A stretch of DNA of 64,000 bases. It comes from Escherichia coli. GTDB lineage: Bacteria; Pseudomonadota; Gammaproteobacteria; Enterobacterales; Enterobacteriaceae. Position numbers and translations under genes: made by a program. Of this stretch, positions 13,129 through 13,314 are shown piece by piece. Location: the NCBI RefSeq assembly GCF_044324875.1, contig NZ_CP172185.1. One strand, 5' to 3'. The notes under the pieces were generated by a model, which made no database searches, was not told where the DNA came from, and saw only the letters and a program-made list of their open reading frames with translations. Positions within the stretch are counted from its first letter, which is position 1. Each line of letters begins with the position of its first letter.

Positions 13129-13314
13129 ATGCAAGAAACAAAAATCAACCGCAAATCTAACTGTACAAACTGCAATATTCCCGGATGTAAGCAAACCCCG
13201 TTTTGCAAGTACTGTCGTAGTGTCAAAGATATATCCGGAGCTAGACGCTCTTTATATCTCCATGTAGCAATATTCATCATTATTATTGTACTTACTATTA
13301 TTTCAGTACTTTGA
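13129..13314 (+). CDS. small Cys-rich membrane protein (61 aa)
   Basis: GGGAG SD; N-terminal C-x2-C-x4-C-x6-C-x2-C cluster then a single hydrophobic helix (VAIFIIIIVLTIISVL); antisense ORF 13098..13343 considered less likely. Confidence 0.3.
   Translation: MQETKINRKSNCTNCNIPGCKQTPFCKYCRSVKDISGARRSLYLHVAIFIIIIVLTIISVL

Follow-up and report, generated by a model that had tools for sequence, protein, structure and literature searches.

An unannotated small gene beside the Escherichia coli iol operon and its predicted zinc-ribbon, tail-anchored membrane protein product

A short open reading frame (ORF) lies in AT-rich DNA next to the iol (myo-inositol) operon in a 64,000-nucleotide stretch of the Escherichia coli contig NZ_CP172185.1 (assembly GCF_044324875.1), which is referred to here as the window. 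It raises the question of whether a frame of this size in such DNA is a gene and, if so, what its product may do. On balance, we favor the reading that it is a genuine gene for a tail-anchored inner-membrane zinc-ribbon protein, which may tether an adjacent regulator and which is dispensable in the genomic island that carries it.

The reading frame and its surroundings

The ORF (13129..13314, plus strand) begins with ATG and would encode a peptide of 61 amino acids, MQETKINRKSNCTNCNIPGCKQTPFCKYCRSVKDISGARRSLYLHVAIFIIIIVLTIISVL. The earlier note had described a Cys-rich peptide of this length, which holds, with the spacing C-x2-C-x4-C-x6-C-x2-C, which does not; the cysteines occupy residues 12, 15, 20, 26, and 29 (i.e., C-x2-C-x4-C-x5-C-x2-C), so that the third gap is x5. 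Its proposal of one transmembrane helix after the Cys motif agrees with prediction: residues 45 to 61 are hydrophobic up to the very C terminus (mean Kyte-Doolittle value over these 17 residues, 3.04) and were modeled as a helix by AlphaFold2 (pLDDT, 88 to 94), which had low confidence over the Cys-rich part (residues 1 to 40; pLDDT, 47 to 60). The plausible ribosome-binding site that it had named was also recovered, as a GGGAG that precedes the ATG by 10 nt (anti-Shine-Dalgarno pairing, -7.3 kcal/mol), a spacing at the long end of the range. Strain EC15 has AGGAG in place of GGGAG. Residues 1 to 44 contain nine K/R and two D/E residues, for a net charge of about +7. The features of the locus are as follows.

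11222..11723, plus strand: papX-like MarR-family regulator gene, the first of the cassette; frameshifted in the window, with an intact allele elsewhere that is 71% identical to UTI89 PapX
12395..12820, plus strand: 141-aa protein gene (WP_000009634), all-helical with HTH-like repeats; syntenic partner of the small ORF in two lineages
12821..13128, no strand: AT-rich spacer of 308 nt on the 5' side of the ORF; 35% identity between the cassette lineages
13114..13118, plus strand: Shine-Dalgarno-like GGGAG
13129..13314 including the stop codon, plus strand: ORF for a small Cys-rich protein, predicted to be C-terminally anchored (ORF reading, homologues, dN/dS, and conserved block)
13162..13215, plus strand: putative zinc ribbon, codons 12 to 29; two CxxC knuckles (C12/C15 and C26/C29) invariant across four lineages
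13240..13263, plus strand: basic juxtamembrane motif A-[KR]-R-S-x-x-x-H, codons 38 to 45; A38, R40, S41, and H45 invariant
13261..13311, plus strand: C-terminal hydrophobic helix (putative tail anchor), codons 45 to 61
13315..13989, no strand: AT-rich spacer from the ORF to the iolB stop codon; indel-prone, with 24% identity between lineages

Of 5,426 complete E. coli genomes, 46 contained the region, in every case as part of the chromosome and beside the iol operon, with the small gene as a single copy. RefSeq/PGAP annotates no gene at the ORF position in any of these 46 genomes. Other pipelines have called it: an identical protein, labeled "hypothetical/uncharacterised protein [Escherichia coli]," is found in public protein collections and comes from 321 contigs.

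The ORF is located within a spacer of 1,169 nt (31% GC) between the 141-aa gene and the iolB stop codon (13990, minus strand). The GC content is 29 to 39% over the regulator cassette (positions ~11000 to 13990; about 3 kb) and 58 to 66% over the iol genes (14000 to 17000), and this sharp break indicates that the two blocks were acquired separately. IS66 tnpA/tnpB genes (9838 to 10592) and an IS3 remnant (10838 to 10969) mark the left edge of the low-GC block. The earlier note had placed the ORF in otherwise noncoding AT-rich DNA about 0.7 kb from the iolB terminator. The base composition and the distance (0.64 to 0.82 kb from the hairpin at 13953 to 13966) agree with this description, but the ORF does not lie in an isolated spacer, being the third gene of a cassette with the papX-like and 141-aa genes. 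The hairpin itself is GC rich, is positioned between A-runs and T-runs past the iolB stop codon, and looks like a bidirectional terminator.

Several other strains, like that of the window, have a papX-like pseudogene; the intact allele of ATCC 8739 encodes 166 aa. PapX is a regulator whose gene lies distally in P-fimbrial operons, and here a regulator of the fimbrial-operon type has been left next to the iol operon in a neighborhood devoid of fimbrial genes. Neither the 141-aa gene nor the small ORF was found downstream of papX in UTI89, and the UTI89 genome contained no member of the small-protein family. The AlphaFold2 model of the 141-aa protein was confident and all-helical, with two HTH-like repeats, and no curated family matched this protein. 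Its gene was intact in every island genome inspected. A homologue with 58% identity occurs on other E. coli contigs (L033 to L036) among perC-, papB-, and AraC-type regulator genes, unaccompanied by the small ORF.

The spacer downstream of the ORF varies among strains. Nine genomes in which the start codon is lost share a 54-nt deletion that begins 8 nt past the stop codon (13322 to 13375), a 476-bp deletion (spacer positions 13480 to 13960) characterizes the 33F4 lineage, and length variation affects a poly-C tract (13622 to 13628) and poly-A runs. No consensus sigma-70 promoter was found upstream of the ORF (12821..13128), and the promoter-like sites around it (8) were close in number to those expected from shuffled sequences (6.4). 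A known RNA at the ORF was considered and discarded, with Rfam giving only noise over 12700 to 14100, the fold being ordinary, and the Salmonella iol small RNAs (sRNAs) being located elsewhere. The latter, RssR/STnc2160 and STnc1740, lie in the Salmonella iol island at the 3' end of iolB, with which RssR has its terminator in common (PMC6288124). The end of our ORF is 676 nt from the iolB stop codon, a position unlike that of these sRNAs.

The sequence features of the ORF are individually unremarkable. In composition-matched dinucleotide shuffles of the spacer, an ATG-initiated ORF of at least 61 aa arose in 28% of cases, at least five cysteines within 18 aa arose in 11%, and an equally strong hydrophobic stretch arose in 5.5%. 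A Cys cluster and a helix within one stop-free segment occurred in 0.1% of shuffles, a criterion that was defined post hoc, with the ORF already seen. An ORF of 81 aa (13098..13343) overlaps the small ORF on the opposite strand. Given these features, the matter could not be decided by inspection of the sequence alone. The antisense ORF was rejected as a real gene; its start is removed by the deletion variants, and in the other lineages stop codons interrupt the antisense frames.

Relatives and selection between lineages

Two relatives of the window peptide, P0005 (E value, 2e-6) and P0006 (E value, 3e-5), emerged when 1.84 billion representative proteins were searched exhaustively with HMMER. 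P0006 has 67 aa, with a Shine-Dalgarno sequence AAGGAAG, and its gene lies in a self-contained insert of ~350 nt (53% GC) that separates trbC from traN in an F-type tra operon, to which it is antisense. In P0005, the similarity is confined to the C-terminal 58 residues (referred to here as P0005c), and the called frame of 150 aa is probably overextended; an IncF plasmid and two short contigs carry genes of this type, which lie amid remnants of IS3, IS66, and Rpn. A fourth lineage was reached by way of the neighboring gene. On contigs L037 to L039, homologues of the 141-aa gene are followed by an uncalled ORF of 62 aa, MKNGCKYDCTDCNIPGCQRTLFCHYCHGNEDISGARRSLFIHLVVFIILIVLTVITVLSGTD, with a Shine-Dalgarno sequence GAGG (L037), and the gene order papX-like gene, 141-aa gene, and small ORF recurs on L037 and L038. 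The three diverged relatives (34 to 62% identity) are all from mobile DNA of E. coli or enterobacteria. The small ORF is the sole element common to all four loci, the P0005c and P0006 loci having no 141-aa or papX-like neighbor.

The trbC-traN junction of F-type transfer operons is apparently a variable insertion point (L009, 5860 to 6217; L013, 1102 to 1482). It holds the small zinc-ribbon gene in antisense orientation in one plasmid-like contig and an unrelated gene for a hypothetical protein of 126 aa in other IncF plasmids; in standard F plasmids, trbC and traN overlap with no insert.

Beyond these lineages, tblastn matched 1 of 72,556 plasmids (CP098976.1) and no phages, and scans detected no relatives among 100,044 species-representative genomes or in viral contigs. 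A metagenome scan returned island copies and a single other protein (79 aa; L030, 4995 to 5234). The latter is soluble, with a similar N-terminal CxNC...C..C pattern, no hydrophobic helix, and a DNA methyltransferase-like gene beside it, and is probably an unrelated zinc-ribbon protein. The family thus sampled appears to be very small, uncurated, and confined to the accessory DNA of E. coli and other enterobacteria.

Twelve positions are invariant over the four lineages (M1, C12, C15, P18, T23, C26, Y28, C29, A38, R40, S41, and H45). Conservation in this alignment is heaviest in the predicted zinc ribbon and linker and lighter in the C-terminal hydrophobic helix, which all four lineages retain. 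C20 is present in some lineages only, so that the fifth cysteine is not conserved. The pair of CxxC knuckles, about 10 to 12 residues apart and conserved among the homologues, corresponds to the sequence pattern of four-cysteine zinc ribbons, and a single helix at the extreme C terminus behind a basic N-terminal part is the layout of tail-anchored proteins in all four lineages. The GC content of the four lineages ranges from 36 to 53%; the hydrophobic tail is therefore no by-product of AT-rich DNA.

The strongest single result is the comparison, segment by segment, of the window with L037. Identity was 68% in the papX-like gene, 15% in the spacer between the papX-like and 141-aa genes, 81% in the 141-aa gene, 35% in the spacer before the small ORF, 72% with no gap columns in the small ORF, and 24% downstream of it. 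The ORF is therefore a conserved block without indels, set in DNA that is for the rest too diverged to align, which rules out a chance ORF. Between lineages, synonymous sites were saturated or much more diverged than nonsynonymous sites (pS, 0.47 to 0.86; pN, 0.20 to 0.47). The dN/dS ratio was 0.32 for the window versus L037 and 0.18 for L037 versus P0005c, in comparison to 0.26 for the neighboring 141-aa gene. The sense frame alone was open in all lineages, in an alignment that was itself based on translation of the sense frame. Taken together, the 72% identity free of indels amid spacers of 24 to 35% and the dN/dS values of 0.18 to 0.32 identify the ORF as a coding gene under selection.

These comparisons bear directly on the central proposal of the earlier note, i.e., that the ORF encodes an overlooked small zinc-ribbon membrane protein. 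The frame, four of the five cysteines, the juxtamembrane motif, and the C-terminal helix are kept in three diverged lineages, which supports this proposal. A reading frame that was not conserved in related sequences had been named as grounds for abandoning the proposal, and the opposite was found. In a tblastn comparison, the kind of conservation check that the note had suggested, the L037-type peptide shared 60% identity with the window peptide and 57% with P0005c.

Decay in the iol-island lineage and competing explanations

Within the island lineage, the picture is one of erosion. Among 12 distinct island haplotypes, the density of single nucleotide polymorphisms (SNPs) was 5.9% in the ORF versus 3.9% and 3.2% in its flanks. 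The SNP events in the ORF comprised 5 synonymous, 4 nonsynonymous, and 3 disabling changes (ATG>ATA, Q2*, and Q22*), the last class (3 of 12) exceeding the neutral expectation (P = 0.02). Dead copies were found in 11 of the 46 complete genomes: nine had ATG>ATA with no alternative in-frame start, one had Q2* plus a scrambled tail, and one had an ORF broken by IS3/IS1. In the latter, E. coli LH50-c (L015, 850 to 2989), an IS3 lies inside the small ORF, a 67-nt ORF fragment remains between two IS elements, and an IS1-bounded deletion took everything to the left of the ORF, including the 141-aa and papX-like genes. About 35 of the 46 copies are intact with the Shine-Dalgarno sequence kept, assuming that unsampled genomes with one mismatch share the variants of the sampled ones. 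Further variants, from protein clusters and metagenome contigs, are Q22*, a frameshift, a deletion, and two losses of the stop codon, and substitutions at family-invariant residues (P18L, T23P, and R40H) occur in the protein clusters; some of these variants may be assembly errors. We conclude that, in the iol-island lineage, the small gene shows no detectable constraint, is dispensable, and is eroding. The island lineage differs by only 1 to 2%, so that weak selection would be hard to detect.

Such decay is the main ground for supposing that the family is real but that the island copy is a silent relic, i.e., an intact-looking remnant of a decaying fimbrial regulatory cassette that is no longer expressed or used, probably with the surrounding AT-rich DNA silenced by H-NS. 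This explanation is well supported by the lack of constraint and the excess of disabling mutations within the lineage, by the dead copies, and by the further variants from protein clusters and metagenome contigs, and it also fits the papX-like pseudogene next door and the failure to detect a promoter. However, roughly three dozen copies remain intact with their ribosome-binding site, which one strain has even improved to AGGAG; the 141-aa neighbor showed no decay in the genomes inspected; and the low divergence limits what can be said against weak selection. We regard the relic explanation as possible but, taken as a whole, doubtful.

A second alternative is that the ORF encodes a small membrane toxin of a selfish module resembling type I toxin-antitoxin systems, which would damage or depolarize the inner membrane and be kept off by antisense or convergent transcription, with chromosomal copies decaying as harmful or useless. 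Type I toxins (Hok/Gef, Ldr, and TisB) are likewise small single-helix membrane peptides of plasmids and islands, and their chromosomal copies are often inactivated, as here; chromosomal hok loci decay by inactivating mutations, and the excess of inactivation in the island lineage is similar. Also in keeping with a toxin are the size of the peptide (<70 aa) with its single hydrophobic helix, its location in mobile DNA beside IS elements, and the P0006 copy, which is a self-contained antisense insert in a tra operon. In contrast to these toxins, however, the helix of the window protein is C-terminal and follows a conserved Cys-rich domain of 44 aa. The conserved positions are mostly in the zinc ribbon and linker, predicted to be cytoplasmic, rather than in the helix, which points to specific binding of something cytoplasmic at the membrane and not to simple membrane damage. 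Furthermore, the gene is single-copy, toxin and defense models gave no match, no antisense promoter/terminator pair (i.e., no sign of an antisense RNA) was found above background at the window locus, and the mRNA structure was ordinary (z = -0.3). A hok-like fold-back, in which the start region would pair with sequence beyond the stop codon, was suggested by the fold and the 54-nt deletion but was rejected because 30% of shuffles equaled or beat it and because it was not conserved. The toxin explanation is in our judgment improbable.

Least probable is a chance ORF in AT-rich noncoding DNA, in which Ile/Phe/Leu runs and open frames come easily and the Cys pattern would be coincidental: the frequency of ORFs of this length in shuffles, the longer antisense ORF, and the missing PGAP call favor it, but the diverged homologues with the same motifs in DNA of 43% and 53% GC, the dN/dS values and indel-free block amid nonaligning spacers, the rarity of a combined Cys cluster and helix, and the stops in the antisense frame of other lineages leave it, as far as comparative evidence goes, effectively excluded.

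Predicted product and comparison with known systems

We therefore return to the tail-anchored zinc-ribbon protein, for which we infer translation, zinc binding, topology, and a partner from sequence. The window copy is intact and could be translated. In the proposed arrangement, the ~44 positively charged N-terminal residues would stay in the cytoplasm, where C12, C15, C26, and C29 are predicted to form a four-cysteine zinc ribbon. The conserved basic linker would lie at the membrane surface, and the last 17 residues would form the single membrane helix, with few residues or none beyond it. The zinc ribbon may bind a cytoplasmic partner and hold it at the membrane. The most plausible partner would be one of the two adjacent regulators, the window cassette of low GC content consisting of the papX-like MarR regulator gene, the gene for the helical, HTH-like 141-aa protein, and the small gene in third place. 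This partnership is suggested by synteny, which is seen in only two, related lineages. The small protein could then be an antagonist of minimal size that is tethered to the membrane and would work much as other membrane-bound inhibitors do on small regulators. A more specific version, in which the protein antagonizes the 141-aa regulator, the PapX-like regulator, or both within an unrecognized three-gene, fimbria-associated cassette that gates cross talk between adhesion and motility, is a speculative extension that we think unlikely. If it held, the cassette might be a Gram-negative, tail-anchored counterpart of the HdrRM or DanRI pairs.

Sequence searches of Pfam, NCBIfam, PHROGs, PADLOC, and the PDB returned nothing above threshold. 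DUF2116 (PF09889; "probable treble clef") and Zn_Ribbon_1 (PF13240) likewise have a short CxxC-x(10-12)-CxxC ribbon in ~60 aa. P0005c scored 17.9 bits (E value, 0.003) against DUF2116, below the gathering threshold of 26.8, and aligned to profile positions 6 to 56 of 59, i.e., beyond the knuckles; the window peptide (at an E value of ≤1), P0006, and the L037 peptide had no hit to this family. The scores of P0005c against Zn_Ribbon_1 (17.1 bits; threshold, 25) and DZR (PF12773; 13.7 bits; threshold, 27.3) were also too low for assignment, and the other three peptides had no hit to either. P0006 reached 14.4 bits against NCBIfam TIGR04104 (cxxc_20_cxxc putative zinc finger), for which the cutoff is 45 bits, and the window peptide had no hit. 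DUF2116 and the generic zinc ribbons appear to be the nearest curated families, and a single member reaches them, below threshold.

In its gene arrangement and proposed logic, the window cassette resembles DanRI of uropathogenic E. coli. DanI is a four-Cys zinc-finger protein of 69 aa that is encoded just downstream of the small regulator DanR and antagonizes it, and the pair belongs to a pathogenicity island, where its neighbors include a transposase remnant and a fimbrial operon, pap (bioRxiv 10.1101/2025.06.10.658900). Unlike the window protein, DanI has no hydrophobic helix. Homology between the two was considered and rejected (DanI of UTI89, WP_001298030.1; hhalign probability, 22% over 22 columns that cover only the zinc knuckles), as was a relationship between DanR, which is of the LytTR type, and the 141-aa protein (E value, 0.34).

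The proposed mechanism is also similar in concept to the HdrRM/BrsRM LytTR regulatory systems, in which a membrane-anchored protein sequesters the transcription factor encoded alongside it. In some anti-sigma factors, a single membrane helix follows a cytoplasmic domain that binds zinc. However, no sequence similarity to either group was detected, the window protein is much smaller and would have essentially no extracytoplasmic part, and neither a sigma factor nor a LytTR regulator adjoins its ORF. The proteins described here thus constitute a new, very small family with a general architecture that is already known.

This locus is a clear case of a real small-protein gene that was missed by standard annotation and lies outside curated families, and the evidence for the gene came from comparative analysis, not from the window sequence alone. 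Its practical impact is limited, the family being very rare and the gene dispensable in the iol island. Adhesion is set against motility by the regulatory cassettes of fimbrial operons, in commensal E. coli as in pathogenic strains; these cassettes would gain a membrane-anchored means of control if the protein does act on the PapX-like or the 141-aa regulator.
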